64,000 bases of DNA. Origin: Bugula neritina (lineage: Eukaryota; Animalia; Bryozoa). Below the pieces are notes generated by a model. It was not told the origin of the DNA. It worked only from the letters and a program-made list of their open reading frames with translations, and ran no database searches. Of the stretch, positions 16,101 to 64,000 are shown in pieces. The stretch spans positions 744,001-808,000 of the forward strand of contig OZ037766.1 of assembly GCA_964035545.1 (NCBI GenBank), written 5' to 3'. Every line of letters begins with the position of its first letter. Position 1 is the first letter of the stretch. The translations under genes and the position numbers were made by a program.

Positions 16101-19100
16101 TGAATAAAGGCCTGGCCTCACACTCGTGAGAATCACACGGAATCGTCTATTTGACACGAAAACACAATCGTACAATCAAATCTGAGGGAATTCAAATAAA
16201 ATGGTCTTCAGTGGGTGCACCCAACGAAGACAATGGACGAAAAAGCGAAATTAACAATAAGCACTATTCGATTAGTCAATAGAATTTTAGCAACAGTAAT
16301 TATTTCATTTCTACCACGTTTCTCTGTTTGGCAATTTTCAGCTGTTTGTATTTCGTGCAAGACTCATTCAAGGACTATTTATTATGTGTTTCGTCCGACG
16401 AGTGTGTGACTGGTCATAACGAGAGGATAACTCACGAAAATCTTCACATGAGTTTCGTGTGATTCTCACTAGCATGAGGCCAGGCCTTAAAGGCTAAATA
16501 TGAAAACACAGTGCTGTAACAGAGTAGAATGGGGTCTCACCCTGATGGCCAGGCCAAGGGGTATGACATAGGTCAGCCCCATACCCAGACCAAAACACAG
16601 GCCATACGTCAGCAGCAGGAGGTAGTAGCTGACCTTCACTGTGAAGGCCGTCAGGAACACGCTGATACTAAAACACACAGTGCTGATACTAAAACACACA
16701 GTGCTGACACTAAAACACACAATGCTGACACTAAAACACACAATGCTGACACTAAAACACACAATGCTGACACTAAAACACACAATGCTGACACTAAAAC
16801 ATACAATGCTGATACTAAAACATTCAACCTATTCTTCTATGAAATACAAAAGACTAACAGTTGAGTGGCAAGTATTTCAACAAAAAAAATTATTATTTCA
16901 GAATGAGTATTAAAATATTATGGCTCGCGGCCTAAGTAGAATTAGGGCTTTGCTGCTGAAACTAGGCTATATGTTATCAATTGAGAGCTGAGTGCATGTG
17001 TACTAGTACTAGTGTGGTGGCTCGTGGAGCTACCAGCAACACAATACGCAAGGTTGCGTATTGACCCGGAACAATGTATTAGCCAATTAACTAAGCTGTT
17101 TGATAAGTAATAGTAGCCGCTTCGCGCTACTAGCTCAGTTGAGGATAGTGCTGTAAATTAAATAGACGTGCGTATCATTACTGTTGTACCTTAAATTTTA
17201 TTATGTATTCTTGTATTAAAATATAACGATATCTACTCGACTTAACACGGTGAAGTTTCTCTAGTGATAAATAGACTCTCTTGGTGACACATCAACCCTA
17301 AATCTGAAAACTATAACAGTGGTGGCAGCGGTGGGATAGTGTACATTAAAGATGGAGACTGAAAATGCTAGAATGCAACCACCCCCAGTAGAAGGTGAGC
17401 GTAGAAATGCTGTTAATCCTGTAAATCGTGAGGCAGAAGAAGCTTATAGACATTGCTTGAAAGCTCCCACCTTTACTGGGTCGGAAGATGTCGAACAATT
17501 TATACAAGAATTTAGAGAGGTAATGGAGGTTGCTCAATGGCCGCATAGAGTGGCCCTCATTCAATTGCGGAGAGCGGTGACGGAGCAAGCCAAGCCGTAC
17601 GGAGTGGGAACGGACGTGGACGGCATACTGGCTGCGCTGCGGGCCCGTTTTGGCACCTCCGTCATAGACGCTAGGACCAAGCTGGAGAGATTGTGCCGCA
17701 CCCCGCGGACCTCGCTGCAGGAACATGCCGCGACGGTGAAGAAGCTGGCGCAGATTGCATATAGCGATCTGCCAGCACAACACCAAGAGCGTTACACCTA
17801 TGACGCCTTTGTCCAGTCCCTAAACGACCTGGGCCTAGACCATCACCTACGAGCTAAAGGGATAACCAGAATAGAGGATGCCCTGAAGGCTGGAGAAGCT
17901 TACCTGTTGGCTACCCAAATGCATCAGGCACAAAGGAACCCCCCAGTAGTCGGAGTCAGCGCTGCCAGGGCTACGACAGGCTCCGAAGCCCTCCCGCTGG
18001 AAGCCGAAGTGGACCGCATGGTAGAGATGCTGGGACAATTGGTAACCATTCTGGCCAGTGCTGGCCCCGGTCAGGCATTACGGATGCCCCCAACGTCTGT
18101 GGGACAGGGCTGGAGTAGCGCTGATCAGGACCAGGGACCGAAAGGACGACCCCAATACCAGGGGGCGTTAAACTGTCACGGCCCGCGGACACACTCCCTC
18201 CCCGCGGGCCGCAACTAAAGGAGTATGGTGGGAAACGCCGTCGCCTGTCCGTACGGACACGACGGAACGCTCCACCCGAGTGGCAGGTACCACGCAGGAC
18301 TAGTAGGCCCGCACAACGGCCAAGTACCTTCTCCCTGCCACTCACTAACCGGTTTCACCGGTTACCTCGGGAAGAGGAGCCCGCCACTGAAATGGAGCCA
18401 GAAGGCCCAGTGGAGAGGCCCGAACCCCGCCGGCACCAACCTCGCCGCCGGAAGCCCCGTAAACCACGGGTGAAACCCCCGCCGTCCTGTCAACCCAGGA
18501 CAACACATGCGGGGGGGGTGAAAGTACAACCACATGGAGAGAGCTATTTCCTACCCGGAAAGGTGGCCGGCAATGCCGTCACTTTCCTGCTCGACTCCGG
18601 TTGTACTACCAACCTTCTCAGTCGTAGAGTCTTTGAGGCACTGCCCCGCCGGGACAGGGATAGAGTACGACCGTATACTGGAGAACATGGCACCCTGGCA
18701 GACGGGTCATGTATCCCCTTTTATGGTATTATCGAGCTCCCTGGGCGTGTCCGAGATCAGGCTGTACAGGAGACCTTTATCATAGGTCAACTGGAGGAAG
18801 ATGCTATCCTCGGCATGCCCTTCTTGAAGCAACACCAATGCCGAATCGACTTTAGTAAGTCGGTGGTGCTGATGGGCGGGCGAGAACTCGCCTGTGTGGA
18901 TAAGTTTGGGCGTCCTCTGGTGGGCGGTGTTCAGGTAGTTCGGAACTGCACCGTACCCGGACGCTCCAGAGCTACTATCCACTGCCGAGTGAACAGCAAC
19001 CGGATAGCCAGGCTCGGGGTCGTTGAAGGCGCGCACGAAAGGATCCAACTCGCCAGTAGTTTAAACCGACTAACTGAGCGAGGGGAGGTCTTAGTGCAGT

Positions 19101-22100
19101 GTGTCAACCCCTTTACTGAGCCCATTGAGCTCCCAGCTGGGTCAATGCTGGGCCGGTTCCACTCCGTCCAGGAAGAGGACGTGGGCCCGTCGCTGGGTGA
19201 CGCGACGGAGGCACCCCCTCGACACCCTATTCAGGGACGAGGGGCAGTCCCAACACATCTCCGGGAGTTATATGAAACAGCCAGTGGCGGCTGCGCGAGT
19301 AACAGAGAACGCCAAGCTATGGCTAAGTTACTACGCGACTACGGCGATGTGTTCAGCAGCGGAGAGCATGACGTGGGGCTGACTGGAATTGTCAGACACG
19401 AAATACCGCTGACTGCAGGGACAGCTCCTGTCCGGCAGCCCACACGCAGGCTGGGGCCGGAGAAAGAGAAGGAGGTTAGCCGACAAGTACGGGATCTTCT
19501 GGACCGGGGACTGATAGAGCCCGCCCATAGTGCGTGGAGCTCGCCAGTCGTACTGGTCCGGAAGAAAGACGGCAGTTGGCGGTTCTGTGTGGACTACCGC
19601 AAACTCAATAGCGTAACCATACAGGACGCCTACCCTCTACCTCGTATTGACGAGTCATTGGACGCCCTAGCCGGCAGCAAGTACTTCAGTACGTTAGACT
19701 TGCTAAGCGGCTATTGGCAGGTTCCTCTGAGTCCCGACGCCCAAGAGAAAGCGGCGTTTATCACACGGGACGGTTTGTGGAAGTGGAAGGTGCTGCCCTT
19801 CGGGCTAACCTCCGCCCCAGCCACCTTCCAGAGGCTGATGGAACAAGTCCTTAGCGGACTCCATTGGAAGACACTGCTGGTCTACCTCGATGATGTCATC
19901 GTAATCTCTCCAGACTTCGAGACACATGTCAGTCGTCTGCAGGAGGTTTTCGAGAGACTCCGAGGTGCCGGTCTCAAGCTCAAACCTTCCAAATGCGCTC
20001 TATTGCAGCCGGAGGTCAAGTACCTGGGGCACGTTGTCGGTCGAAACGGCGTGGCAACGGATCCCGAAAAGGTACGGGCGGTAGAAGACTGGGTCACCCC
20101 CCAAGACTTGACCGGACTCCGGGCTTTCTTGGGGCTGGTAGGGTATTACAGGCAATACATACCAGACTTTGCGGGCATAGCCCAGCCGTTAAACCGGCTC
20201 ACCGCAAAGGGAGTGACGTGGCAGTGGACCCCAGTCGAACAAGAAGCGTTCGACCGCCTCAAGGGTTGCCTACTAACGGCGCCCATCTTGGCCTACCCAG
20301 ACCCCACTCTGGAGTACATCCTAGACACGGACGCCAGTGACCAGAATGTTGGCGCCGTGCTGTCACAAGTGCAGGAAGGCCGAGAAGTAGTAGTAGCCTA
20401 CTACAGCAAGTCTCTCTCTCCCGCTGAACGAAATTACTGCACTACCCGCAAGGAGCTGCTGGCAGTAATCAAGTCAGTGAAGCACTTCAGACCATACCTA
20501 TATGGCAGGAAGTTCCGGCTGCGTACGGATCATGCCTCGCTGATCTGGTTGTGCAAGAGAGCAGAGCCCTCTAGTCAGGTCGCCCGGTGGCTCGAAATCC
20601 TAGCTGAATTCTCATACCGGATCGAACATCGACCGGGCAAGAGACACAGCAATGCGGATGGGTTGAGTCGCCGACCTGACGGAGGTTGCAAACAGTGTCT
20701 CAACATCGAGAGGAGGGATGGAGGTCCCCCGCGATGCGAGTTGGAGACGCTGGCTCATCACGGAGCACCGTTTGACTGGGATCAAGGTCAACTCAGGCAG
20801 AGAGTTGATGAGTCCCCGGAGGATGTGCAAAACCTCCGCGCCAACCCTGTACTGGCCGGTAATGTTCGAGAGCTGAAGAAGCTCCAAGAAGAACTGCCTG
20901 GAGTCGTGGCAGACATATACCGGGCCAAACGGGAAGGGCGACGACCCAGCGAGGAACGCATAAGACAGGGATGCGCCGAGTTCCGGCTATACTGTCAGCG
21001 TTGGGACTCGCTGCGGATCGGGCAGGATGGGTTGCTAACCATCTCTCTAGCTGCCAGCGGCAGACACCCGGAAAGGAAGAGGGTAGTCTGCCCCACAGCC
21101 ATCCGCCGTGAGTTGATTTGGGATACTCACAAGCAGGCCCACGCAGGGGTCAAGCGAGTGATATCCAAATTACGACTCCGGTGGTATTGGCCGCAGATGG
21201 AGCGTGACGTCCGGCTCAGAGTCAAACAGTGTGAGATCTGCCAGGCCAGTAAGCATAGCCGCCCCCCTGGTGAAGCAGGACGGCGGAGGCTATATGCTGG
21301 CAGGCCCTGGCAAGTAGTCGCTGTAGACCTGGTCGGACCCATGCCCCTGACCCCCAGAGGCAATAATTGGATCCTAGTACTAACCGACCACTTTACTAGG
21401 TGGGCGGATGCTCTGGCCATCCCAGATGCATCAGCCCCAACAGTGGCCAGGGCACTAGACCAACATGTATTCTGTTATTTTGGGCTTCCCGAACAGATAC
21501 ACTCTGATCAAGGCGCTCAATTCCAGTCTCAACTGATGAGCGACCTTTGTCACCTCTGGGGAGTAAATCAGAGCAGGACCACCCCCTACCACCCTCAAGG
21601 TAATGGGGTGGTGGAGCGCAACAACCGAATGCTAGGTGATGCGCTCCGGAGTCTCCTCCTTGGACGAGGTCAAGAGGAATGGGATACGGTGTTGCCACAG
21701 GTCATGCGGGCATACCGTAGCACCCCACACACCAGTACTGGTGAGACCCCAAACCTCTTGATGCTCGGGAGAGAGACTCGTGTCCCTGACCATCTCACCT
21801 ATCACGTTCCCGAGCAAGACAACTCGGTTCACGAGTATGCCAGTGAACTAGTGGAACGGATGAAGGCCGCACACGATATACTGCGTCAACAGCAGTGGAA
21901 GGTGCGGCACGAAGATTCCGATGAACCCCCGCTCTATCAAAGGGGAGATAAGGTGTGGATGGTCAATTACCGTAGGCGCCGCGGACAGGCTGATAAGCTG
22001 AAGCCTAAGTTCGTAGGCCCCTACGTGGTCGTCGAGGCTATGCCCAATCATACGTACAAGATTGAGCGCTCAGGACAGGTGTCTATCCAGAATGAGTCTC

Positions 22101-25100
22101 GCTTGAAACCGTATTGGGCTAGCCCTGACGGAGTGGGAGAAGCCCCCCCGTTGTTAGAGCCCAGGAGGCAGACAACGACGCGCGGGCGACGGCGGCGTGG
22201 ACCTGAATACGAAGTGGTCATACCGCGGGAGGAAAACTTGGTGAGAGAGGAGCGGCAGCTTTTGTCAACAGAAGCGTGTCCGCCGCCGCCAAGTCTAATT
22301 CCATCACTTCCAGAAACCGAGCCGGTTCCGGAAGTGCAAACCCCCACGGAGGGAGGGGCTCCATCCGGAGAACAAGAAGAGGTGACCACTAACGGTGAAG
22401 TAGAGACGCCATTAGAGGCTCCTACTAACGAACCGGCAAGCGTGTCATCCAGAGAACAAGAAGAGGTGACCACTAACGGTGAAGTAGAGACGCCATTAGA
22501 GGCCCCTACTAACGAACCGGCAAGCGTGTCACCCCCCCTAGAAAGGGGACAGCGTACGAGGAAGCCCCCACCGTATTTGAAAGACTTCATATGTGACTGC
22601 ATTAGAAGCGGCGCACATGAAAGTCTAGGGGAAAACCGTACGATGAAATGTTGGAGTTGTGAACCCCACGCAAATATCAACTTTTGCGAGGGCGGAATAG
22701 TGGGAGGAATTAATGCGCGTAAAGCAAATAGTTCCGACCTCGTGCCTCAGAAACGATGCTCAGCCTTTTCTTATGCTGACATCGCCAAAGGCAGACGTAT
22801 CCCACAACCAGCTCCAACCTTACCAAGAACGTTGAGTATGGACATTAATACCGAGTTCTCAGGTAAGCCAGTATAAGTCTTGTATTCCTATTCATGGAAA
22901 CGGGCTCGATGCCAGTAAATTCTGAACTAATTCAGCAGATTGAATCAGAATTACTGGGAACCACGTTTCATGTGAATGACGATGAAGACACTGTAATGGC
23001 CGACGGTCTTTTAGACCTGGAGCTAGACACTGTTCTTGGTCAGTCCACACATGATTCATCAGTTCCTCGAGTGCATTCCAAAAGCTGTGACTCTCAGGCT
23101 AGCAACGGTCGACAGTCACTAGAATTATGTTGTAAAGATCCACCGCGATCTAACAATAATTCTACTTTTGTAGACACACTCGCGCCCGTCTCTACGGGCA
23201 TGCCTTCTCTAGAGATGGCGTGGGACCCAGAGCCGGCCCCAACAACTCCTACCACCAGGCAACTGCCACCTCAGTTGGAAGCAACCTCCAACTGGATTAC
23301 CCCTGCCACAGAGAGGGAAATCAGGACCCATCAAGGAGGTGAGAGTAATCGTGAATGCAACCTCTGCCAGCAGCGATTCACAACCCACCGCAGACTAAAG
23401 GTGCACTTGCCGCAGCATTACATCACCACTTTCTGCCCTTGCGGCGAATATAGCTATAACCGTGATTATCTGCTGCGGCACCAACGTACTATGCAGTGCT
23501 ATCAAGGACATGTCTATGAAGTAGACGAATCATCCTATCCTGCCTTTCTCAACGCCATTAAACCACTCATCACTGACTCAGCTCGGCTATCTCGCCTGGA
23601 GCAAGGCTTCCCTTCCCCGCGACCTATCACCTCTGGAGCTACAGATAAACCTACCCAGTCTGCTAACTCTCCACCTCACAGTCCTATACGCATGCCGCAT
23701 ACCTTTCCTCGTGTCGTACTACAGAGAGTAGACACAAATGCGTACACACTCCCTCCTCCTATTCCATCCTCAGAGCGGAAACGACACAGGCAACCAACTT
23801 CCTCTCGCTCGTCCCCCTGGGCCCGTAACCTACGTGAGGTAGAAGCTAGGGCGCATGACTTGGAGCAAGAAGTCTACAGGCTGGCCCCACGAATACAAGC
23901 AGCCTCCAGTGAACTCAAATACTTACAGGAGTCGATTAAACGCATGAAGCGTGCGGCCCGCAATTAACTCGAGTCTACCTACCACTCCCTACTACTCATT
24001 CCCCTACCTCTCTGTGGCATTCCCTACCGTAATGGTGGCACGTACTCTATATGTAGATAGGACCTTCTCTTGCTTATTACTTAGTGCACGATATATATAC
24101 CTGTATATTTTTTTTACCAGTTGTTGTTTTTTTTTTATATATATTATATACTTTTATATTGTTCTCTTACCCCCCAACGAAGTATACGTTTTTTTTTGTG
24201 AATCTTATTTTATCAGAAAGTGGGCTTTCTGCTGGAGGGGGCAGTGTGGTGGCTCGTGGAGCTACCAGCAACACAATACGCAAGGTTGCGTATTGACCCG
24301 GAACAATGTATTAGCCAATTAACTAAGCTGTTTGATAAGTAATAGTAGCCGCTTCGCGCTACTAGCTCAGTTGAGGATAGTGCTGTAAATTAAATAGACG
24401 TGCGTATCATTACTGTTGTACCTTAAATTTTATTATGTATTCTTGTATTAAAATATAACGATATCTACTCGACTTAACACGGTGAAGTTTCTCTAGTGAT
24501 AAATAGACTCTCTTGGTGACACATCAACCCTAAATCTGAAAACTATAACACTAGCATATGCTATCAGTCTCAAAAAGCACAGTGAAGACACGGTAAGCAG
24601 CTAAGGACTAGAAAGACACCAGCTGCATGAGGATGGCTTCGTATCAATCGATAAGAATAATAAATTACTAACTCATCCTCAACTCTCTCTATAAAATGGC
24701 ATAATTAGGTAACATAAATCAATTATAATCACTATTTCACACCAGCCATGGGAATATTACAATACCTCAATTCACAGTATAATATTAGGCAATAGTACTA
24801 TAGACTAAATACAGCCCAGTAGGATATTCAGATACATCTTTATACTCTGTATACTCTACTCTGTATATTCTGTATATTCTACTCTGTATATTCTACTCTG
24901 TATACTCTACTCTGTATACCCTACTCTGTATACTCTACTCTCTATACTCTCTACTCTGTATACTCTGTATACTCTACTCTGTACACTCTACTCTGTATAT
25001 TCTACTCTGTATACTCTACTCTGTATACTCTGTATACTCTGTATACTCTACTCTGTATACTCTGTATACTCTACTCTGTATACTATACTCTGTATACTAT

Positions 25101-26141: not shown

Positions 26142-27248
26142 ACTCTCAGACTATAGTTTGAAGTTTCAGCAGCTGTAAGCAAGTTCTAGCTAAAATAGGA
26201 AAATATAATATAGTGTGGTTAAAATAGTAAGAGTTGAATGTGTTACATATGAATTGTATTTATGATAATGACATGTACATAATAAAACCTTAGTGGGATT
26301 ATGGTTATTCCAGATATGAAATTAATCGGAAACAATTTAGTTCAAAAATGTCCAAGCAGTAAACCTAGAACCCCAGACTATTATCACAGAAAGGCAGAAT
26401 ATTGCCAGCTGATTTACCATATAGGTACACCCTGTGGATTAACTTTACTCAAAATGAAGTGTTTGAGAAGGCTCAACTGTCCCTAGGGTTCGAACCCAAT
26501 TAAATGGAAAATATTTAAAATTATTTTACATCTCACTACATAGAAAAATGATAACTATATTATATGCAGGCAGAATACATATTACTTTACTATTAATATT
26601 AGAAGATTAGCATTGGATTTTACCCAAACTATTATTATTCTTAGCTGGGATGTAATTACAACTATTGTTATAGTTTTCAGATTTAGGGTTGATGTGTCAC
26701 CAAGAGAGTCTATTTATCACTAGAGAAACTTCACCGTGTTAAGTCGAGTAGATATCGTTATATTTTAATACAAGAATACATAATAAAATTTAAGGTACAA
26801 CAGTAATGATACGCACGTCTATTTAATTTACAGCACTATCCTCAACTGAGCTAGTAGCGCGAAGCGGCTACTATTACTTATCAAACAGCTTAGTTAATTG
26901 GCTAATACATTGTTCCGGGTCAATACGCAACCTTGCGTATTGTGTTGCTGGTAGCTCCACGAGCCACCACACTGCCCCCTCCAGCAGAAAGCCCACTTTC
27001 TGATAAAATAAGATTCACAAAAAAAAACGTATACTTCGTTGGGGGGTAAGAGAACAATATAAAAGTATATAATATATATAAAAAAAAAACAACAACTGGT
27101 AAAAAAAATATACAGGTATATATATCGTGCACTAAGTAATAAGCAAGAGAAGGTCCTATCTACATATAGAGTACGTGCCACCATTACGGTAGGGAATGCC
27201 ACAGAGAGGTAGGGGAATGAGTAGTAGGGAGTGGTAGGTAGACTCGAG

Positions 27249-28322
27249 TTAATTGCGGGCCGCACGCTTCATGCGTTTAATCGACTCCTGTAAGTATTTG
27301 AGTTCACTGGAGGCTGCTTGTATTCGTGGGGCCAGCCTGTAGACTTCTTGCTCCAAGTCATGCGCCCTAGCTTCTACCTCACGTAGGTTACGGGCCCAGG
27401 GGGACGAGCGAGAGGAAGTTGGTTGCCTGTGTCGTTTCCGCTCTGAGGATGGAATAGGAGGAGGGAGTGTGTACGCATTTGTGTCTACTCTCTGTAGTAC
27501 GACACGAGGAAAGGTATGCGGCATGCGTATAGGACTGTGAGGTGGAGAGTTAGCAGACTGGGTAGGTTTATCTGTAGCTCCAGAGGTGATAGGTCGCGGG
27601 GAAGGGAAGCCTTGCTCCAGGCGAGATAGCCGAGCTGAGTCAGTGATGAGTGGTTTAATGGCGTTGAGAAAGGCAGGATAGGATGATTCGTCTACTTCAT
27701 AGACATGTCCTTGATAGCACTGCATAGTACGTTGGTGCCGCAGCAGATAATCACGGTTATAGCTATATTCGCCGCAAGGGCAGAAAGTGGTGATGTAATG
27801 CTGCGGCAAGTGCACCTTTAGTCTGCGGTGGGTTGTGAATCGCTGCTGGCAGAGGTTGCATTCACGATTACTCTCACCTCCTTGATGGGTCCTGATTTCC
27901 CTCTCTGTGGCAGGGGTAATCCAGTTGGAGGTTGCTTCCAACTGAGGTGGCAGTTGCCTGGTGGTAGGAGTTGTTGGGGCCGGCTCTGGGTCCCACGCCA
28001 TCTCTAGAGAAGGCATGCCCGTAGAGACGGGCGCGAGTGTGTCTACAAAAGTAGAATTATTGTTAGATCGCGGTGGATCTTTACAACATAATTCTAGTGA
28101 CTGTCGACCGTTGCTAGCCTGAGAGTCACAGCTTTTGGAATGCACTCGAGGAACTGATGAATCATGTGTGGACTGACCAAGAACAGTGTCTAGCTCCAGG
28201 TCTAAAAGACCGTCGGCCATTACAGTGTCTTCATCGTCATTCACATGAAACGTGGTTCCCAGTAATTCTGATTCAATCTGCTGAATTAGTTCAGAATTTA
28301 CTGGCATCGAGCCCGTTTCCAT
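27249..28322 (-). CDS. ORF3 zinc-finger/coiled-coil protein, element B
   Basis: Translation identical to 22894-23967. Confidence 0.9.
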   Translation of the reverse strand: METGSMPVNSELIQQIESELLGTTFHVNDDEDTVMADGLLDLELDTVLGQSTHDSSVPRVHSKSCDSQASNGRQSLELCCKDPPRSNNNSTFVDTLAPVSTGMPSLEMAWDPEPAPTTPTTRQLPPQLEATSNWITPATEREIRTHQGGESNRECNLCQQRFTTHRRLKVHLPQHYITTFCPCGEYSYNRDYLLRHQRTMQCYQGHVYEVDESSYPAFLNAIKPLITDSARLSRLEQGFPSPRPITSGATDKPTQSANSPPHSPIRMPHTFPRVVLQRVDTNAYTLPPPIPSSERKRHRQPTSSRSSPWARNLREVEARAHDLEQEVYRLAPRIQAASSELKYLQESIKRMKRAARN

Positions 28323-28339
28323 GAATAGGAATACAAGAC

Positions 28340-31300
28340 TTATACTGGCTTACCTGAGAACTCGGTATTAATGTCCATACTCAACGTTCTTGGTAAGGTT
28401 GGAGCTGGTTGTGGGATACGTCTGCCTTTGGCGATGTCAGCATAAGAAAAGGCTGAGCATCGTTTCTGAGGCACGAGGTCGGAACTATTTGCTTTACGCG
28501 CATTAATTCCTCCCACTATTCCGCCCTCGCAAAAGTTGATATTTGCGTGGGGTTCACAACTCCAACATTTCATCGTACGGTTTTCCCCTAGACTTTCATG
28601 TGCGCCGCTTCTAATGCAGTCACATATGAAGTCTTTCAAATACGGTGGGGGCTTCCTCGTACGCTGTCCCCTTTCTAGGGGGGGTGACACGCTTGCCGGT
28701 TCGTTAGTAGGGGCCTCTAATGGCGTCTCTACTTCACCGTTAGTGGTCACCTCTTCTTGTTCTCTGGATGACACGCTTGCCGGTTCGTTAGTAGGAGCCT
28801 CTAATGGCGTCTCTACTTCACCGTTAGTGGTCACCTCTTCTTGTTCTCCGGATGGAGCCCCTCCCTCCGTGGGGGTTTGCACTTCCGGAACCGGCTCGGT
28901 TTCTGGAAGTGATGGAATTAGACTTGGCGGCGGCGGACACGCTTCTGTTGACAAAAGCTGCCGCTCCTCTCTCACCAAGTTTTCCTCCCGCGGTATGACC
29001 ACTTCGTATTCAGGTCCACGCCGCCGTCGCCCGCGCGTCGTTGTCTGCCTCCTGGGCTCTAACAACGGGGGGGCTTCTCCCACTCCGTCAGGGCTAGCCC
29101 AATACGGTTTCAAGCGAGACTCATTCTGGATAGACACCTGTCCTGAGCGCTCAATCTTGTACGTATGATTGGGCATAGCCTCGACGACCACGTAGGGGCC
29201 TACGAACTTAGGCTTCAGCTTATCAGCCTGTCCGCGGCGCCTACGGTAATTGACCATCCACACCTTATCTCCCCTTTGATAGAGCGGGGGTTCATCGGAA
29301 TCTTCGTGCCGCACCTTCCACTGCTGTTGACGCAGTATATCGTGTGCGGCCTTCATCCGTTCCACTAGTTCACTGGCATACTCGTGAACCGAGTTGTCTT
29401 GCTCGGGAACGTGATAGGTGAGATGGTCAGGGACACGAGTCTCTCTCCCGAGCATCAAGAGGTTTGGGGTCTCACCAGTACTGGTGTGTGGGGTGCTACG
29501 GTATGCCCGCATGACCTGTGGCAACACCGTATCCCATTCCTCTTGACCTCGTCCAAGGAGGAGACTCCGGAGCGCATCACCTAGCATTCGGTTGTTGCGC
29601 TCCACCACCCCATTACCTTGAGGGTGGTAGGGGGTGGTCCTGCTCTGATTTACTCCCCAGAGGTGACAAAGGTCGCTCATCAGTTGAGACTGGAATTGAG
29701 CGCCTTGATCAGAGTGTATCTGTTCGGGAAGCCCAAAATAACAGAATACATGTTGGTCTAGTGCCCTGGCCACTGTTGGGGCTGATGCATCTGGGATGGC
29801 CAGAGCATCCGCCCACCTAGTAAAGTGGTCGGTTAGTACTAGGATCCAATTATTGCCTCTGGGGGTCAGGGGCATGGGTCCGACCAGGTCTACAGCGACT
29901 ACTTGCCAGGGCCTGCCAGCATATAGCCTCCGCCGTCCTGCTTCACCAGGGGGGCGGCTATGCTTACTGGCCTGGCAGATCTCACACTGTTTGACTCTGA
30001 GCCGGACGTCACGCTCCATCTGCGGCCAATACCACCGGAGTCGTAATTTGGATATCACTCGCTTGACCCCTGCGTGGGCCTGCTTGTGAGTATCCCAAAT
30101 CAACTCACGGCGGATGGCTGTGGGGCAGACTACCCTCTTCCTTTCCGGGTGTCTGCCGCTGGCAGCTAGAGAGATGGTTAGCAACCCATCCTGCCCGATC
30201 CGCAGCGAGTCCCAACGCTGACAGTATAGCCGGAACTCGGCGCATCCCTGTCTTATGCGTTCCTCGCTGGGTCGTCGCCCTTCCCGTTTGGCCCGGTATA
30301 TGTCTGCCACGACTCCAGGCAGTTCTTCTTGGAGCTTCTTCAGCTCTCGAACATTACCGGCCAGTACAGGGTTGGCGCGGAGGTTTTGCACATCCTCCGG
30401 GGACTCATCAACTCTCTGCCTGAGTTGACCTTGATCCCAGTCAAACGGTGCTCCGTGATGAGCCAGCGTCTCCAACTCGCATCGCGGGGGACCTCCATCC
30501 CTCCTCTCGATGTTGAGACACTGTTTGCAACCTCCGTCAGGTCGGCGACTCAACCCATCCGCATTGCTGTGTCTCTTGCCCGGTCGATGTTCGATCCGGT
30601 ATGAGAATTCAGCTAGGATTTCGAGCCACCGGGCGACCTGACTAGAGGGCTCTGCTCTCTTGCACAACCAGATCAGCGAGGCATGATCCGTACGCAGCCG
30701 GAACTTCCTGCCATATAGGTATGGTCTGAAGTGCTTCACTGACTTGATTACTGCCAGCAGCTCCTTGCGGGTAGTGCAGTAATTTCGTTCAGCGGGAGAG
30801 AGAGACTTGCTGTAGTAGGCTACTACTACTTCTCGGCCTTCCTGCACTTGTGACAGCACGGCGCCAACATTCTGGTCACTGGCGTCCGTGTCTAGGATGT
30901 ACTCCAGAGTGGGGTCTGGGTAGGCCAAGATGGGCGCCGTTAGTAGGCAACCCTTGAGGCGGTCGAACGCTTCTTGTTCGACTGGGGTCCACTGCCACGT
31001 CACTCCCTTTGCGGTGAGCCGGTTTAACGGCTGGGCTATGCCCGCAAAGTCTGGTATGTATTGCCTGTAATACCCTACCAGCCCCAAGAAAGCCCGGAGT
31101 CCGGTCAAGTCTTGGGGGGTGACCCAGTCTTCTACCGCCCGTACCTTTTCGGGATCCGTTGCCACGCCGTTTCGACCGACAACGTGCCCCAGGTACTTGA
31201 CCTCCGGCTGCAATAGAGCGCATTTGGAAGGTTTGAGCTTGAGACCGGCACCTCGGAGTCTCTCGAAAACCTCCTGCAGACGACTGACATGTGTCTCGAA

Positions 31301-32824
31301 GTCTGGAGAGATTACGATGACATCATCGAGGTAGACCAGCAGTGTCTTCCAATGGAGTCCGCTAAGGACTTGTTCCATCAGCCTCTGGAAGGTGGCTGGG
31401 GCGGAGGTTAGCCCGAAGGGCAGCACCTTCCACTTCCACAAACCGTCCCGTGTGATAAACGCCGCTTTCTCTTGGGCGTCGGGACTCAGAGGAACCTGCC
31501 AATAGCCGCTTAGCAAGTCTAACGTACTGAAGTACTTGCTGCCGGCTAGGGCGTCCAATGACTCGTCAATACGAGGTAGAGGGTAGGCGTCCTGTATGGT
31601 TACGCTATTGAGTTTGCGGTAGTCCACACAGAACCGCCAACTGCCGTCTTTCTTCCGGACCAGTACGACTGGCGAGCTCCACGCACTATGGGCGGGCTCT
31701 ATCAGTCCCCGGTCCAGAAGATCCCGTACTTGTCGGCTAACCTCCTTCTCTTTCTCCGGCCCCAGCCTGCGTGTGGGCTGCCGGACAGGAGCTGTCCCTG
31801 CAGTCAGCGGTATTTCGTGTCTGACAATTCCAGTCAGCCCCACGTCATGCTCTCCGCTGCTGAACACATCGCCGTAGTCGCGTAGTAACTTAGCCATAGC
31901 TTGGCGTTCTCTGTTACTCGCGCAGCCGCCACTGGCTGTTTCATATAACTCCCGGAGATGTGTTGGGACTGCCCCTCGTCCCTGAATAGGGTGTCGAGGG
32001 GGTGCCTCCGTCGCGTCACCCAGCGACGGGCCCACGTCCTCTTCCTGGACGGAGTGGAACCGGCCCAGCATTGACCCAGCTGGGAGCTCAATGGGCTCAG
32101 TAAAGGGGTTGACACACTGCACTAAGACCTCCCCTCGCTCAGTTAGTCGGTTTAAACTACTGGCGAGTTGGATCCTTTCGTGCGCGCCTTCAACGACCCC
32201 GAGCCTGGCTATCCGGTTGCTGTTCACTCGGCAGTGGATAGTAGCTCTGGAGCGTCCGGGTACGGTGCAGTTCCGAACTACCTGAACACCGCCCACCAGA
32301 GGACGCCCAAACTTATCCACACAGGCGAGTTCTCGCCCGCCCATCAGCACCACCGACTTACTAAAGTCGATTCGGCATTGGTGTTGCTTCAAGAAGGGCA
32401 TGCCGAGGATAGCATCTTCCTCCAGTTGACCTATGATAAAGGTCTCCTGTACAGCCTGATCTCGGACACGCCCAGGGAGCTCGATAATACCATAAAAGGG
32501 GATACATGACCCGTCTGCCAGGGTGCCATGTTCTCCAGTATACGGTCGTACTCTATCCCTGTCCCGGCGGGGCAGTGCCTCAAAGACTCTACGACTGAGA
32601 AGGTTGGTAGTACAACCGGAGTCGAGCAGGAAAGTGACGGCATTGCCGGCCACCTTTCCGGGTAGGAAATAGCTCTCTCCATGTGGTTGTACTTTCACCC
32701 CCCCCGCATGTGTTGTCCTGGGTTGACAGGACGGCGGGGGTTTCACCCGTGGTTTACGGGGCTTCCGGCGGCGAGGTTGGTGCCGGCGGGGTTCGGGCCT
32801 CTCCACTGGGCCTTCTGGCTCCAT
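28340..32824 (-). CDS. pol: Pol polyprotein, element B
   Basis: Translation identical to copy A. Confidence 0.98.
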   Translation of the reverse strand: MEPEGPVERPEPRRHQPRRRKPRKPRVKPPPSCQPRTTHAGGVKVQPHGESYFLPGKVAGNAVTFLLDSGCTTNLLSRRVFEALPRRDRDRVRPYTGEHGTLADGSCIPFYGIIELPGRVRDQAVQETFIIGQLEEDAILGMPFLKQHQCRIDFSKSVVLMGGRELACVDKFGRPLVGGVQVVRNCTVPGRSRATIHCRVNSNRIARLGVVEGAHERIQLASSLNRLTERGEVLVQCVNPFTEPIELPAGSMLGRFHSVQEEDVGPSLGDATEAPPRHPIQGRGAVPTHLRELYETASGGCASNRERQAMAKLLRDYGDVFSSGEHDVGLTGIVRHEIPLTAGTAPVRQPTRRLGPEKEKEVSRQVRDLLDRGLIEPAHSAWSSPVVLVRKKDGSWRFCVDYRKLNSVTIQDAYPLPRIDESLDALAGSKYFSTLDLLSGYWQVPLSPDAQEKAAFITRDGLWKWKVLPFGLTSAPATFQRLMEQVLSGLHWKTLLVYLDDVIVISPDFETHVSRLQEVFERLRGAGLKLKPSKCALLQPEVKYLGHVVGRNGVATDPEKVRAVEDWVTPQDLTGLRAFLGLVGYYRQYIPDFAGIAQPLNRLTAKGVTWQWTPVEQEAFDRLKGCLLTAPILAYPDPTLEYILDTDASDQNVGAVLSQVQEGREVVVAYYSKSLSPAERNYCTTRKELLAVIKSVKHFRPYLYGRKFRLRTDHASLIWLCKRAEPSSQVARWLEILAEFSYRIEHRPGKRHSNADGLSRRPDGGCKQCLNIERRDGGPPRCELETLAHHGAPFDWDQGQLRQRVDESPEDVQNLRANPVLAGNVRELKKLQEELPGVVADIYRAKREGRRPSEERIRQGCAEFRLYCQRWDSLRIGQDGLLTISLAASGRHPERKRVVCPTAIRRELIWDTHKQAHAGVKRVISKLRLRWYWPQMERDVRLRVKQCEICQASKHSRPPGEAGRRRLYAGRPWQVVAVDLVGPMPLTPRGNNWILVLTDHFTRWADALAIPDASAPTVARALDQHVFCYFGLPEQIHSDQGAQFQSQLMSDLCHLWGVNQSRTTPYHPQGNGVVERNNRMLGDALRSLLLGRGQEEWDTVLPQVMRAYRSTPHTSTGETPNLLMLGRETRVPDHLTYHVPEQDNSVHEYASELVERMKAAHDILRQQQWKVRHEDSDEPPLYQRGDKVWMVNYRRRRGQADKLKPKFVGPYVVVEAMPNHTYKIERSGQVSIQNESRLKPYWASPDGVGEAPPLLEPRRQTTTRGRRRRGPEYEVVIPREENLVREERQLLSTEACPPPPSLIPSLPETEPVPEVQTPTEGGAPSGEQEEVTTNGEVETPLEAPTNEPASVSSREQEEVTTNGEVETPLEAPTNEPASVSPPLERGQRTRKPPPYLKDFICDCIRSGAHESLGENRTMKCWSCEPHANINFCEGGIVGGINARKANSSDLVPQKRCSAFSYADIAKGRRIPQPAPTLPRTLSMDINTEFSGKPV

Positions 32825-32997
32825 TTCAGTGGCGGGCTCCTCTTCCCGAGGTAACCGGTGAAACCGGTTAGTGAGTGGCAGGGAGAAGGTACTTGGCCGT
32901 TGTGCGGGCCTACTAGTCCTGCGTGGTACCTGCCACTCGGGTGGAGCGTTCCGTCGTGTCCGTACGGACAGGCGACGGCGTTTCCCACCATACTCCT

Positions 32998-33864
32998 TTA
33001 GTTGCGGCCCGCGGGGAGGGAGTGTGTCCGCGGGCCGTGACAGTTTAACGCCCCCTGGTATTGGGGTCGTCCTTTCGGTCCCTGGTCCTGATCAGCGCTA
33101 CTCCAGCCCTGTCCCACAGACGTTGGGGGCATCCGTAATGCCTGACCGGGGCCAGCACTGGCCAGAATGGTTACCAATTGTCCCAGCATCTCTACCATGC
33201 GGTCCACTTCGGCTTCCAGCGGGAGGGCTTCGGAGCCTGTCGTAGCCCTGGCAGCGCTGACTCCGACTACTGGGGGGTTCCTTTGTGCCTGATGCATTTG
33301 GGTAGCCAACAGGTAAGCTTCTCCAGCCTTCAGGGCATCCTCTATTCTGGTTATCCCTTTAGCTCGTAGGTGATGGTCTAGGCCCAGGTCGTTTAGGGAC
33401 TGGACAAAGGCGTCATAGGTGTAACGCTCTTGGTGTTGTGCTGGCAGATCGCTATATGCAATCTGCGCCAGCTTCTTCACCGTCGCGGCATGTTCCTGCA
33501 GCGAGGTCCGCGGGGTGCGGCACAATCTCTCCAGCTTGGTCCTAGCGTCTATGACGGAGGTGCCAAAACGGGCCCGCAGCGCAGCCAGTATGCCGTCCAC
33601 GTCCGTTCCCACTCCGTACGGCTTGGCTTGCTCCGTCACCGCTCTCCGCAATTGAATGAGGGCCACTCTATGCGGCCATTGAGCAACCTCCATTACCTCT
33701 CTAAATTCTTGTATAAATTGTTCGACATCTTCCGACCCAGTAAAGGTGGGAGCTTTCAAGCAATGTCTATAAGCTTCTTCTGCCTCACGATTTACAGGAT
33801 TAACAGCATTTCTACGCTCACCTTCTACTGGGGGTGGTTGCATTCTAGCATTTTCAGTCTCCAT
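32998..33864 (-). CDS. gag: Gag, element B
   Basis: Translation identical to copy A. Confidence 0.9.
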   Translation of the reverse strand: METENARMQPPPVEGERRNAVNPVNREAEEAYRHCLKAPTFTGSEDVEQFIQEFREVMEVAQWPHRVALIQLRRAVTEQAKPYGVGTDVDGILAALRARFGTSVIDARTKLERLCRTPRTSLQEHAATVKKLAQIAYSDLPAQHQERYTYDAFVQSLNDLGLDHHLRAKGITRIEDALKAGEAYLLATQMHQAQRNPPVVGVSAARATTGSEALPLEAEVDRMVEMLGQLVTILASAGPGQALRMPPTSVGQGWSSADQDQGPKGRPQYQGALNCHGPRTHSLPAGRN

Positions 33865-36264
33865 CTTTAATGTACACTATCCCACCGCTGCCACCACTGT
33901 TATAGTTTTCAGATTTAGGGTTGATGTGTCACCAAGAGAGTCTATTTATCACTAGAGAAACTTCACCGTGTTAAGTCGAGTAGATATCGTTATATTTTAA
34001 TACAAGAATACATAATAAAATTTAAGGTACAACAGTAATGATACGCACGTCTATTTAATTTACAGCACTATCCTCAACTGAGCTAGTAGCGCGAAGCGGC
34101 TACTATTACTTATCAAACAGCTTAGTTAATTGGCTAATACATTGTTCCGGGTCAATACGCAACCTTGCGTATTGTGTTGCTGGTAGCTCCACGAGCCACC
34201 ACACTATTACTTATTTACTATAACAATAATGTATAAACTAACATCTTGATTAGTTGTTCTAAATCCTAATTCTTTGAGTTTCTTGCTTTTGTAAGCACTT
34301 TGGTTTTTAAATTACAAATGATAAATCTGTTTACTATTAGGTATGTATGATATTAGACATAGTAGCCTACCGCATTAACTATAACTACAACTATAATATT
34401 AACATAATATGTTGATGTATAAGAAACTGAACAGTGGTGACATCAGAATAGCTGATCAAAAATAAAATAAGCTTTCATCTCTCTATTACTATTAGCATTA
34501 CAAATTTGATTTACTTTTAAAATTAATGACTGAAAGGAACAAATGTTAATGTAAACATCTTAATGTGAGTGAATACTGAACAGGTACTTACCCTTAACAT
34601 TGGCTTTGTAATTTGTAGTTATGCCAATACTTTAACTGGTAGATGCTTCTGTATGCAATTTGAATTAAAACGCAAACTGAAACTGCACAATCACTCTGAC
34701 AAATCGCACTGAGTATGACACTGACAGTCACAGCGTGAGTGAGTGCAGTAGATTGAACGGCAACAACTATGATTTATTAGTAACACTATAGGCATAAGTT
34801 GTTGAATAAGTAAAACAATTTAAATTACTCATTTAGTCGAAATTTTGAAAATCAAAATGAATAACTATAACTACATGTATAAGTCATTTAATTTTATGAT
34901 TTAAGTGCACTGTACTGGTAATTCACTAATTGCTACTAGCCAAAGGTAACTACAGGCTATAAGTATAAGTATATATGATATGAGTACATCATAATCGCAG
35001 ACTAAAAGTAAATCTACAATATTTGTAAAATACTGGTAAACTCAACACACATTCGTCATAACTCATAGTAATCAATTGCTACATTTAGTGCAAATGTGCA
35101 TTCTGGAACAGCTGTGTAAACAGCTAGCCAGGGGGTGAAAGGTTAAAAGGGTAAACAAACCATACATATGACTATTCTAATACCAATAAGCTGAAAATCG
35201 CTAGAAGTAGCACCAAGTTAGGGGTGACTAATTACATACTTTGTATAAACTATAGAGCATTAACAACCTCGAGACCGCCACCAACACTGCACTAAATGAC
35301 CACCATCTTTACGCTGCTTCGAGCGATTTCGTAACATAGTCGTGTACATAATTGTGATTGCCTCCTAAGTTGTTCAACTGCAACTGCTAAGTAATAGTTT
35401 AAGTAAAAGAACACACTGGTCAACTGTAGGGAAAAACTAGATACATGGGCATATAACTCATAATTAGTTTTTAAATTATTTTTCAGGCTACAAAAAATGA
35501 AGAAGATTTAGTATTAATACATGCATGCATCATGTCGTTACAAGTGCTTATTTCCTAAGTTTATTGTAACAGAGCAACTGTTGAACTGGTGACTGAAATC
35601 CACTAGTCTAATACTATACAGGCACTAAGTAGGATATACTAGATTCTAGATGAATGAGAAACCATAAACTACTCATCGAATGGTTGACATTTGCAAACTT
35701 GTGGAAATTATTGGTGAATTTTCTTAAATATAACTATATTATGGACATTAACAAAATATAACAAATTTTCAATTGAAATAATAATAATAATAGTGGAATC
35801 AACATGAATTAATATAAATTTCAACAAATCCCTTTTCCTTAATGTTGACAAAAACAGAGAGAATCAAAATAAAATATTGTTTAGTAACTTCAGCATATCG
35901 TGAATAAGAACTGATATGAATTATAAAGTCGCTAGTTTACTAGGTAGTTTAAGTATTCAGTAATCTCGAATTGATTAACCACACTTGTATAACAAACAGT
36001 GAATATAAATCCTACTTAGCATACTTAACAATGTGTTAATATATCTCAAGGACAGACAGTAGATGAAAATAACTCATAACTCTATTTTGCACAAAAATTA
36101 TTAAACAAAAATATATTACACTACAAAAAAGTAATAACAAAAAATATCTAGTAGAGAGAAAGGAATGCTTACGGAATCATCGAGAATATTAGATATAATG
36201 TTATAGAGTTATTGTAGCACCAGAAAAATATTGCTTTTACAACTTTTTCATTTATTTCTTCTAC

Positions 36265-49400: not shown

Positions 49401-50851
49401 TACAGAGAGAATCAGCTGGTAGTCTATAATCTAGTTGACAATAAAATACAGAAGTTCCCACTTCCTGAGATGAAGTTCCCTCTACCTGTATGCATTCTCC
49501 CAGACTCAACTCTCCTCATAGGAGACCACACTATACATGGTAAAGTGAGAAGATATAAAGTGGAGAACACAACTCTCACTCTGATGTGGGAATTCCCTCA
49601 CATCTCAGGACCAACTGGTATTTCCTTTGATCCAACATCTGAACTGATTCACATCTGTACATGGGAAGGACCTCTCCTCATCCTCTCACTTGAAGGTAAA
49701 TACTCTGTTTATTATAGTAAGTTTAGTTACTCTAATACAGGGCTGTTCAACAGGCGGCCCCTGGGCTGGTTGTGACCCCCAGCCTACATTTATGTGACCC
49801 TCTAAGACACAACACATAACATTGTTTTGCACATGTATATGAATTAAAGTGAAAACATCGCTTTTAAACGGCTTATTTATACACATGCCACAAAACATGC
49901 AGCCCGCAGTAACTATTAGGACTTCATTGTGTAATGAGTCATATAGGAGTTTGGAATAAAGTTAAAGTTTACAATGGCTCCCCCTACTGGAATATTCCAT
50001 TTCAGTGGTCCTCTCTCTGAAATGGTTAGACACCCTTGCTTTATTGCAATTTTGTGATATTTTATTCTAGTAATATCACAGGCTATATCATGATATTGTT
50101 AGTAAGTACTTGGCTCTGAGGCTAATTTATAATAATTAGTATTTAATGGAAGTGTTTTACAGTAATTTTAGAGGTGCTCAGTCTAACAACTGTACAGACT
50201 GCCAGCTACACATGAGTTATGAGTTGTAGTTTGACTTCAGTCTAGTGCTGCTATTGTTTTGGTCATCAGATAATTTAAAGATAAATAATTTGATACTTTT
50301 TGACTGCCATTACTGAGACTATTGTAATTTGATAATGGCTGGTAGAGCAGTGTTTGCTGGTGGGACTCCGGTGGCTGTGGTTGGTTCTTGTCAAGTATTT
50401 AATATGTGATAATGTTGGAGTATATCTTATATTATGTAATTATTTATAATTATATTAGCTGAGCACTAAGTTTGTATGTTGAGTTTCTTCTCTCCATGTT
50501 GTCATTTATTATGAAGTAAAGAGTAGAGCAGCTGAGTGAATTATTCAATACTGACTGGTAGAAGTGCAGCTGCAGGTATATTATTGAACATATTTCAGTT
50601 ACTATATTATACTAGAAAGTAGAAACTGTGTGTAGTTGTGTCAGCTGTTGTGATGTCACTGTAGTCTGTCTGTTTGTCTCAAACCGATACAATCTGGTGT
50701 TATTCTATTTACAGGTGAACTGATGGTAAGAATTCCCAGAGAAAGTCTTGGTGTGAGTGACTTGGTGTGGGACATTGCTGTGTATAACAGAGACAAGGTG
50801 TTTCTAGCATGTAGAGATGATGGACTGAGGAGATACACAATAAAATACTAA
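46490..50851 (+). CDS. TRIM-like E3 ligase: RING, B-box1, B-box2, coiled coil, beta-propeller (NHL-like); exons 46490-46671, 46892-47072, 47347-47548, 47728-47933, 48365-48644, 49000-49695, 50715-50851
   Basis: CGYC...PRTLPCLHVYCMRC...CAYC RING; CDVC...FCVES..LCEQH; CEHH...CSHC...CIRC; helical segment; YIVDY, PTGISFD propeller blades; junctions in phase. Confidence 0.88.
49738..50038. mobile_element. Old hAT (Charlie-like) MITE in TRIM intron
   Basis: Ends CAGGGCTGTTCAAC / GTTAGACACCCTTG; degenerate 8-bp flanks CTCTAATA / CTTTATTG. Confidence 0.55.
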
Positions 50852-62184: not shown

Positions 62185-62532
62185 TGTGATAAACTTGTGG
62201 GTTGAATGTAACTTAGTGCAGAACAAGATAGGTTGAAGTAGTAGAGTTCCAAATGTTTATTGTATTAGAAAAATAATGTCAACTTGTCCAGGCGAGCTCC
62301 AGTAGTAGACTGGCTTTACACCGTAACTCGCCTGCTTTTATATACAGCGAACAAAAGAACATAAAACAAAGAATCTTTTGTGTGTGTGGCCCGAAGTTCG
62401 GTAGCTCCGAAATTCGGCAGGCCCGAAGATCGGGGGAACCGATCTTCGGTCAAGCCGAAATTCGGAACTCCGAATTTCGGACCCCAATTAACATTATTGA
62501 ACAAAAGAGTAACCAAGGCATAATCTATCACA
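62185..62532 (-). repeat. 3' LTR of element C (348 bp)
   Basis: 7-bp terminal inverted repeat, TATATAAAAG box near 62344-62335, AATAAA near 62261-62256, follows the PPT; partner LTR outside the window. Confidence 0.75.
62391..62480. promoter_or_regulatory. Array of six palindromic CCGA-N3-TCGG motifs in LTR U3
   Basis: Motifs start at 62391, 62407, 62423, 62439, 62455, 62470 with non-identical 4-5-bp spacers; regulatory role is inferred. Confidence 0.75.
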
Positions 62533-62738
62533 CACACCCCCTATCGGAAAGCGTGCTTTCCGATACGAGGGCGAATAATAACATAATAACAATGAGACGG
62601 ACAATAAACAAAACAAAAAAAAACAGAAGAGAGAGAACAAAGAAACAAAACAAAACAAAACATCAAGTACATAGTATAAGGGGCAACGAATATGTATAAC
62701 AGAGAATTGTCATGCCACCAGTCAGGGAGAGGCGGGTC

Positions 62739-64000
62739 TCACTCCCTCCATGTCCCATCGTCGTTGTCGGTCTGACGTCGTTCCAGCCGGATCAGTCGTC
62801 GTCGCAATTGTGTCAGATCTTCCTCACACCGTGCCACGCGGCGCCGTAAGTGGCGCACCTCCTCTTCTAGTTGCGGTCGGGAGCGGAGTGTGTTGCGCTC
62901 CGGGTGTTGTCTGCGCTCTGGGTGGTGTCTGCTTGCCGCCGAGGAGCGGGGATCCAGGTCCGATGTACCGGGTCTGGCACCATCTCCGACCCTTGTCAGC
63001 ATGACCCGAAGAGGCTGGGTGGCTGCTGGTTGGAGGGCGGCGGCGGGTTCTCCGTCTTCTTCTTGAATTGCTCTGCACGCCGGAAACCCTTGGCCGAGGG
63101 TGGCACGCTTGTGGGGGTCCGCGACGTGCGGCAGGATGAGGTCCCGGAACTCCGGAAATGTGGCCTGATCCACGGTGAACACGTGACCTGAGTGGCAGCG
63201 CGAGATGCGCTGGTGGCGCAGCACATAATCCCGCTGGTAGGAGTATTCGCCGCAAGGGCAGAATACATTGATGAAATGTTGTGGGGCGTGAACACGCAAC
63301 CGCCGGGAGGAGGAGAATTTCCTCCGACATTGCCGGCAGATGCGGTTGCCCGCTGCCCCGCATGCTTCACTAATCTGCTGATTAGTGTCGCGAGAGACCC
63401 AGGACTGGCGGGCGACCAGTGCCTGGGGTAGAGCCAAGGTGGGGGTGTCACTGTCTTCAGCTCGAGTAGAGGAGGGCACACCGCATAGTATTCCCTGTTC
63501 CTCCCCGGCGGCTAATTGTAGCTCAACTGGGTTGGCGACAGGGTCACTATTCATGGTGGATAGCACCTCAGTCCGGTCTGTGGCGACCCGCGGGCTGCAA
63601 GGAGCCGTCACGGGGCTGGTGGAGGGGGGGAGTCGACTCGACTGACCTCCACCTCATCACACTCCATTGCAGTGTCTACAATAGACAGCAGAGGCCGAGT
63701 AAGGCCGGTCTCGCCGTCGCCGAAATTCGGCATCGCCTTATAGGGTACTTTGTGGGTGGTAGGGAGCCGAGGTGAGTCATGGAGAGTGACTGACCCTATG
63801 TCCTGGTCTAATAAAAACTCATTTAGAGAGTCTTCTCCAAAACTCACATCGACTTCCTCCGTTAATAAACTAGATTCTAACAAATCTAAACTAGCCCAAT
63901 TAATTACAGTTGAGTCAGACTCCGGTACGGGAGGCTCTGACTCTAATGAAATACCTGTGTTTGTAGTGTTGTTACCGGGAAGAGTAATACCCATATCCAA
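62739..64000 (-). CDS. ORF3 homologue of element C, split into two frames (63608-64000 acidic part; 62739-63611 zinc-finger/coiled-coil part)
   Basis: CRQC...HAPQH and FCPCGEYSYQRDYVLRHQR..C align with ORF3 of A/B; upstream frame LESSLL...LLDQD...HDS aligns with IESELL...LLDLE...HDS. Confidence 0.85.

Follow-up and report, generated by a model that had tools for sequence, protein, structure and literature searches.

A Ty3/gypsy retrotransposon of the bryozoan Bugula neritina carries, in the position of env, a zinc-finger gene that is real, selected and undescribed. The element, here called element A, lies in a stretch of 64,000 nucleotides (nt) of contig OZ037766.1 in assembly GCA_964035545.1 (positions 744,001 to 808,000, forward strand; hereafter the window). 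Its accessory gene, ORF3 (ORF, open reading frame), is kept by purifying selection and encodes invariant zinc ligands, a conserved short motif, a basic patch and a C-terminal helix with a heptad pattern. Our preferred reading, which we hold tentatively and with somewhat less than even confidence, is that a Ty3/gypsy lineage has conserved ORF3 as an accessory gene, and that its product would act in the nucleus as an oligomeric zinc-finger regulator of the element's own long terminal repeats (LTRs), dock on HP1 through a PxVxL motif like that of KAP1, and so counter silencing.

An accessory gene in the env position of element A

Element A is present twice in the window, and two relatives enter the comparison: family B, at the right-hand end of the window, and L001, a more distant locus in metagenome contigs. 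Element A and its family are called family A where the three are compared.

17013..24550 (+): element A copy 1, an intact LTR retrotransposon
17013..17318 (+): 5' LTR of copy 1, 306 bp, TG...CA, identical to the 3' LTR; 4-bp target-site duplication CTAG
17320..17337 (+): primer-binding site; the identical 18 nt also lie 3' of the LTR in L001
17352..18218 (+): gag, 288 amino acids (aa), 41% identical to L001 gag over 150 aa
18392..22876 (+): pol ORF counted from the first ATG; protease, reverse transcriptase, RNase H, integrase, SH3-like tail
22894..23967 (+): ORF3, accessory gene in the env position, 357 aa
24234..24241 (+): polypurine tract (PPT)
24245..24550 (+): 3' LTR of copy 1
26666..34203 (-): element A copy 2, identical in sequence to copy 1; target-site duplication ATAG; its ORF3 at 27249-28322

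The element has the hallmarks of Ty3/gypsy: LTRs with TG...CA ends, target-site duplications, a primer-binding site (which we take to match tRNA-Leu), a PPT, a pol that runs from protease through reverse transcriptase and RNase H to integrase, and a reverse transcriptase that is closest to that of Ty3 among solved structures (E 4e-93). Its two copies are inverted relative to each other and stand 2.1 kb apart, in AT-rich, eukaryotic DNA that is rich in minisatellites around both. Because their target-site duplications differ, the copies are independent insertions, and segmental duplication is ruled out as their origin. Both insertions are very recent, their sequences and LTRs being identical. 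They also have the left flank AGTA-[C/A]TAG in common (17005-17012, 34204-34211), which hints at a target-site preference.

ORF3 begins 17 nt downstream of the pol stop, in another frame, and ends upstream of the PPT. Its start codon is supported by the MET(G/D) opening, which recurs in several homologues. Readthrough from pol into ORF3 was rejected, since the frames differ and the pol stop lies between them; a fused protein was also absent among 7,340 candidates of 840-2395 aa, which is weak evidence. Just 5' of ORF3, at ~22860-22867, there is a consensus-like splice donor, CAG/GTAAG, and pol itself runs beyond the usual integrase end into a Cys-containing tail (22590-22876). At the other end of pol (18219-18391), the gag stop and pol are in different frames, and the pol frame is open upstream of its first ATG. 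The gag of element A gives no match to a CCHC knuckle; that of L001 has one.

That ORF3 is under purifying selection, as a preliminary description of this DNA had proposed, is borne out by variation among copies. In contigs from two public runs, element A is covered over its whole length, including ORF3, and is a family of multiple copies; all 35 ORF3 differences with a share of at least 25% were used. The excess of synonymous changes among them (27 synonymous and 8 non-synonymous, where the same mutation spectrum would give 10.7 synonymous; 0 of 20,000 simulations reached the observed number) indicates purifying selection, with pN/pS of 0.09-0.13 among element copies. Within the core domain the tally is 10 to 0. 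Reading the same differences in the shifted frames yields 8 and 2 synonymous changes, which rules out a chance ORF or a wrong frame. The matching tally of synonymous to non-synonymous changes, among the 40 of 285 entries listed, is 6/4 for gag and 8/2 for pol. Families A and B are 47% identical over the core, which aligns without gaps for 122 aa; third codon positions are 35% identical and saturated, so that dN/dS is supportive only (NG86 undefined; LWL85 dN 0.51, dS 2.7). Two segments of ORF3, 22894-23193 and 23404-23629, hold one variant each amid dense variation elsewhere, a possible sign of nucleotide-level constraint or of mosaic copies.

Predicted anatomy of ORF3 and an HP1-box-like motif

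The protein divides into the following parts.

22894..23253 (+): disordered acidic N-terminus; residues 1-50 hold 12 D/E and 0 K/R; LLD...VPYK-type block
23254..23625 (+): core domain (residues ~121-244), made up of a W-helix, a C2H2 finger, a CxC-x12-H-x5-C finger, the YxVD strand and two helices
23707..23721 (+): PxVxL HP1-box-like motif, residues 272-276, in a disordered linker
23776..23790 (+): basic patch at residues 295-299, a candidate for the nuclear localisation signal
23815..23964 (+): C-terminal heptad helix, predicted coiled coil, residues 308-357

AlphaFold2 predicts that the N-terminus is disordered and that a compact domain, at residues ~121-240, is joined by a disordered linker to a helix of 49 residues with heptad periodicity. 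Modelled in isolation, the core is a confidently predicted double-zinc-finger domain of ~120 residues (predicted local distance difference test score, pLDDT, 96; predicted template modelling score, pTM, 0.87). The preliminary description had listed a C2H2 finger, a C2HC finger, a GHV[YF]xVD...GFP block, the basic patch and a C-terminal coiled coil. The fingers, as C155-x2-C158-x12-H171-x3-H175 and C181-x-C183-x12-H196-x5-C202, the block and the patch are present, and the C-terminus has a helix at 308-356. All 51 of the aligned members keep seven zinc ligands without change; the first finger, whose ligands are likewise invariant in all 51, fits CxxC-x12-H-x3-H. The finger helix is Arg-rich across the family, and the acidic N-terminus resembles an activation domain in composition. 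It had also been claimed that ORF3 has no membrane anchor and is not env. We agree: no hydrophobic segment suited to a signal peptide or transmembrane anchor was found (best 19-residue Kyte-Doolittle means of 0.63 in ORF3 and 0.53 in the second family), the model has no transmembrane helix, and env identity is thereby ruled out.

No Pfam family matches the core above its cut-off, with zf-C2H2_4 giving matches below the cut-off in 14 of the 51 aligned members. Foldseek searches of PDB and BFVD returned no match at E<=0.001 for the ORF3 structure or its core, and all that came from the ESM Atlas were clusters without a name or of generic C2H2 type. A wide structural comparison of the core with 48,161 chains found none at Z>=5, which does not prove a new fold. 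Its best matches are mostly DNA-bound tandem C2H2 pairs (Kaiso, ZBTB38, SALL4, ZBTB20, CTCF; root-mean-square deviation, rmsd, 2.5-2.9 A over ~50-57 residues), and the overlay of the predicted finger pair on such pairs is weak (Z 3.3-3.5, rmsd 2.5-2.8 A, 50-57 residues). These searches lead us to regard the core as probably a finger pair of DNA-binding-like geometry set inside extra helices that have no listed match. Taken as a whole, the predicted anatomy is what one would expect of a zinc-finger regulator that acts on chromatin in the nucleus, probably as an oligomer.

A conserved island in the linker, P/L-R-V-x-L, is the most informative clue; it is newly recognised here and was missed by the preliminary description, which had called the linkers unalignable. 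They are not wholly so, as this island and the N-terminal LLD...VPYK block show. Lying ~50-65 residues after the YxVD strand, the motif reads P-R-V-V-L-Q-R in family A and L-R-V-[VM]-L-x-R in family B. Across 19 full-length members and the window copy of family A, its mean conservation is 0.82, against 0.59 and 0.57 in the flanking linkers (P 1.0, V 0.9, L 1.0); for family B (14 members and the window copy) the values are 0.69 against 0.43 and 0.39. As is typical of short linear motifs, it sits in a region of low pLDDT. It has P, R, V and L in common with P486-R487-V488-S-L490 of KAP1, whose HP1 box is described as burying Pro486, Val488 and Leu490, Arg487 standing between these residues (PMC12126490); recognised variants of the HP1-binding PxVxL include LxVxL and CxVxL (PMC7465937).

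Counting [PLC]xVxL, 23 of the 63 members with enough downstream sequence carry the motif, against 2.9 expected from shuffles. A pentapeptide within a conserved island of disordered sequence is found in families A and B and occurs near chance level in distant members; by sequence, then, the motif is a feature of the A+B branch, its family-wide status not being proven. A Watersipora gene retains LxVxL after the first of its domain copies. The literature searched (openly accessible papers) gave no retrotransposon-encoded PxVxL protein.

Relatives among Gypsy elements and bryozoan genes

Linkage of ORF3 to Gypsy, proposed in the preliminary description, is supported: in three lineages, A, B and L001, ORF3 goes together with the LTR ends of Gypsy elements. 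The further claim that both families in the window carry the ORF between pol and the PPT stands for family A, which is complete, and goes beyond the data for family B, of which the window holds the order ORF, PPT, LTR.

62185..62536 (-): family B 3' LTR; six CCGA-N3-TCGG palindromes at 62391-62480; PPT and hairpin just upstream
62739..63554 (-): 3' part of the family B ORF3 (271 aa), with the same core, an LxVxL motif (62997-63011) and a coiled coil
63608..64000 (-): acidic 5' part of the family B ORF3, in a different frame, stop at 63610; runs off the window end

The two ORF3s match at E 3e-44. The window copy of family B is frameshifted, its 271-aa ORF being the 3' part of the gene, and the acidic upstream frame resembles the N-termini of two homologues, P0072 and P0043. 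A tblastn search of the window found gag and pol in the two family A copies and none for family B. Searches with DNA patterns gave 57 unconfirmed matches in metagenome contigs and, with a degenerate pattern, one real and independent locus there, L001; they gave no match in viral contigs, and the one match in genome contigs, L002, proved a chance match with in-frame stops. L001 has a 726-aa open frame with the ORF3 domain (35% identity over 94 aa, E 5e-16), followed by a PPT and LTR, then the 18-nt primer-binding site, the gag related to that of element A, and protease. The arrangement reflects a tandem array or a collapsed LTR, and in both cases a related Gypsy element has ORF3 at its 3' end.

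Palindromes occur in the LTRs of all three lineages. The six in family B, spaced at ~16 bp, form a candidate enhancer array; the L001 LTR has related CCGAAT/ATTCGG half-sites, and that of family A a perfect 10-bp inverted repeat. A hairpin with GAAAG/CTTTC arms adjoins the PPT in both families (62537-62570 on the minus strand, and 24214-24241). Its folding is significant in family B (z -4.4) and non-significant in family A (z 0.16) and L001 (z 0.42), and we rejected it as a feature common to the lineages.

A word search returned 17 homologues among 57 candidates, and an exhaustive search 327 matches at E<=0.001; the best 150 of the 327 were used, and 38 multi-finger matches were set aside as generic. 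Among the matches listed, 97 of the 129 remaining non-duplicate sequences have the second finger plus VD, and the conserved core comprises W134, T139, the zinc ligands, R190-D191 and V210-D211. Core and C-terminal helix are both covered in 19 of the 78 family A matches; many close homologues are partial or out of frame, as expected for decaying element copies or short contigs.

A look-up of 30 clusters gave species names in 5, all bryozoan (Watersipora subatra and Bugula neritina). The host-annotated homologues are XP_067940964 and XP_067944745 (Watersipora subatra) and KAF6037488, KAF6040922 and KAF6040923 (Bugula neritina). These uncharacterised proteins have the double-finger domain of ORF3, with 25-52% core identity where measured, and several have a C-terminal coiled coil; unlike ORF3, they are annotated as host genes, two have the domain twice, and three have an extra N-terminal block. 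That unnamed block, which precedes the double-finger domain, is common to P0096, P0166 and P0169 from both bryozoan genera, and these look like true host genes; the two Bugula genes among them have consecutive locus tags. In a quick tree of 65 of the 97 cores, thinned at 62% identity and weakly supported, the midpoint separates the three rows linked to elements, which lie on either side of it, the four rows annotated as host genes are spread about, and P0170, a Bugula gene, lies within family B. The tree fits an element-borne family with repeated domestication, and would also allow a single origin or mis-annotated copies. Judged by sequence, the double-finger domain is common to elements and annotated bryozoan genes, so host homologues exist, of which the preliminary description was unaware. 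This undescribed, confidently folded module offers a tractable case of regulator exchange between transposon and host.

Competing readings and known systems

Resemblance of the ORF3 motif to an HP1 docking site makes it likely that the element manipulates the host silencing machinery in favour of its own expression. In our preferred reading, ORF3 would yield a protein of its own through splicing or re-initiation, would enter the nucleus through its basic patch and oligomerise through its coiled coil. The finger pair would then sit on DNA, plausibly on the CpG-containing LTR palindromes, while PxVxL would occupy the HP1 chromoshadow groove used by host co-repressors and the acidic N-terminus would recruit activators; new insertions would thus keep being transcribed. 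Transposon-encoded counter-silencing proteins are well known in plants (e.g., VANC); in animals we know of barely any. If the reading is true, LTR-bound HP1 counter-silencing would be an animal counterpart of the plant VANC anti-silencers. The broader proposal is doubtful: an old, diversified animal Gypsy lineage with its own DNA-binding HP1-box protein, which mimics KAP1-type co-repressors to hijack or disarm HP1 at LTRs, would be the counterpart of VANC and would have been repeatedly domesticated in bryozoans. A Gypsy family that is young and active and encodes a selected zinc-finger/HP1-box protein supplies a specific counter-silencing hypothesis that is cheap to test.

Several results weigh against this reading. 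The structural matches of the finger pair are weak (best Z 3.5), and near-identical finger helices in families A and B beside differing LTR palindromes argue against matched LTR recognition; no CCGA-N3-TCGG site occurs in the family A LTR. The HP1-box-like motif does not run through the whole family. Its 23 carriers among 63 are mostly close kin, the distant half of the tree has it in 4 of 29 (a hand tally that includes L001), near chance, and in L001 it may be coincidental; it is absent from the subgroup of P0058, P0059 and P0125 and from P0170. Five-residue motifs arise easily. HP1 binding, moreover, is equally compatible with repression or tethering as with anti-silencing. Finally, RNA support amounts to four short contigs of depth 2-3 from one metatranscriptome, which could be DNA, and none of these four ORF3-related contigs has a splice joint.

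We think it rather unlikely that ORF3 is an RNA factor akin to Rev or CERV, whose basic fingers would bind unspliced genomic RNA, whose oligomer would aid nuclear export or stability, and whose motif would meet another partner or link export to HP1-marked loci. Among nuclear accessory proteins of animal Ty3/gypsy elements, CERV of Cer1, from C. elegans, is the only characterised one that we found, and it works in this way; it is described as a non-env accessory protein with a zinc-type Cys loop, a leucine zipper or coiled coil and a nuclear localisation signal, and as regulating Cer1 (PMC10309623). The Arg-rich finger helix and the family B hairpin would suit such a role, yet the hairpin is non-significant in family A and L001, the finger pair weakly resembles DNA-bound pairs, and the architecture of CERV, compared by description only, differs. 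CERV is made from a spliced mRNA and exports RNA; its N-terminal zipper is in common with Gag, and it has a C4-type Cys loop, an M domain that forms rings and a G-protein-like domain (PMC10309623), whereas ORF3 lies after pol and combines a C2H2 with a CxC-H-C finger and an HP1-box-like motif. No G-protein fold is among the structural matches listed for ORF3.

Use as an integration-targeting adaptor, tethering the pre-integration complex to HP1-marked or repeat-rich chromatin, is unlikely. Chromatin tethering of integration is known from Ty5-Sir4 and the chromoviruses. CopiaMBD of Strigamia and Stegodyphus sets a precedent as a chromatin-engaging module in an animal LTR retrotransposon; unlike ORF3, it is described as belonging to Copia, as a host-derived methyl-CpG reader of demonstrated binding, and as a proposed integration guide (PMC6673714). 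The HP1-box-like motif would fit this use, as would two identical copies that landed independently so close together in AT-rich, minisatellite-rich DNA with similar left flanks, but two insertions are no statistic, ORF3 is in another frame than pol and behind its stop, and the lack of a longer fused form among the 840-2395-aa proteins counts weakly against it.

We give low probability to a self-limiting repressor, in which ORF3 on the LTRs would recruit HP1 to cap copy number or silence copies in the soma, a KRAB-ZFP/KAP1-like module in one protein. DNA-binding fingers with an HP1 box are the usual design of a repressor, and annotated bryozoan genes carry the domain at several places in the tree, with the Watersipora gene keeping LxVxL as domesticated repressors would; set against this are the acidic, activation-like N-terminus and the evidently active multiplication of the element (identical LTRs and copies). 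Bel1/Tas is an LTR-binding transactivator, and a plain transactivator of that kind, activating through its acidic domain while the RVxL island binds a partner other than HP1, seems to us of similarly low probability. An acidic-hydrophobic N-terminus, fingers and a coiled coil would be its natural parts, and the motif is missing in most distant members, but the exact P/L-x-V-x-L spacing with variable x is kept in two families that have just 47% identity between their cores. That ORF3 is a fragment captured from a host gene, without a role for the element, is highly improbable: host-annotated homologues exist, but the low pN/pS and the retention of the same position in lineages ~30-47% identical have already largely refuted it.

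The preliminary description presented ORF3 as a candidate new system, an overstatement, since non-env accessory ORFs of LTR retrotransposons, nuclear ones included, have already been described (PMC10309623, PMC5408684, PMC6673714). The ORF3s of bdelloid rotifers are likewise extra sense, non-env ORFs between pol and the 3' LTR of lophotrochozoan Gypsy elements, but encode GDSL, DEDDy, transmembrane or coiled-coil proteins, with no mention of 'zinc' or 'C2H2' in the main text (PMC5408684). The HP1 box of KAP1/TRIM28, to which the P-R-V-x-L of ORF3 is likened above, belongs to a host co-repressor that is described as silencing retroelements (PMC12126490), whereas here the putative HP1 ligand is retroelement-encoded. 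This ORF3 family had no description in the literature searched, a search that did not extend to Repbase, Dfam, GyDB or paywalled papers, nor is such an ORF described in the available text of PMC13269885, PMC13326412 and PMC8220671.

Elsewhere in the window, exon-like pieces to the left of element A (13541-16031, minus strand) give the impression of a membrane-transporter-like host gene interrupted by minisatellites. Further left, an ORF at 7833-9077 (minus strand) has CCHC-like knuckles flanking an array of 33-bp tandem repeats (11-aa units); it may be the remnant of a gag-like ORF in which a minisatellite has expanded. A 216-aa ORF at 49125-49775 has beta-propeller-like repeats (weak MRJP match, E 0.1).

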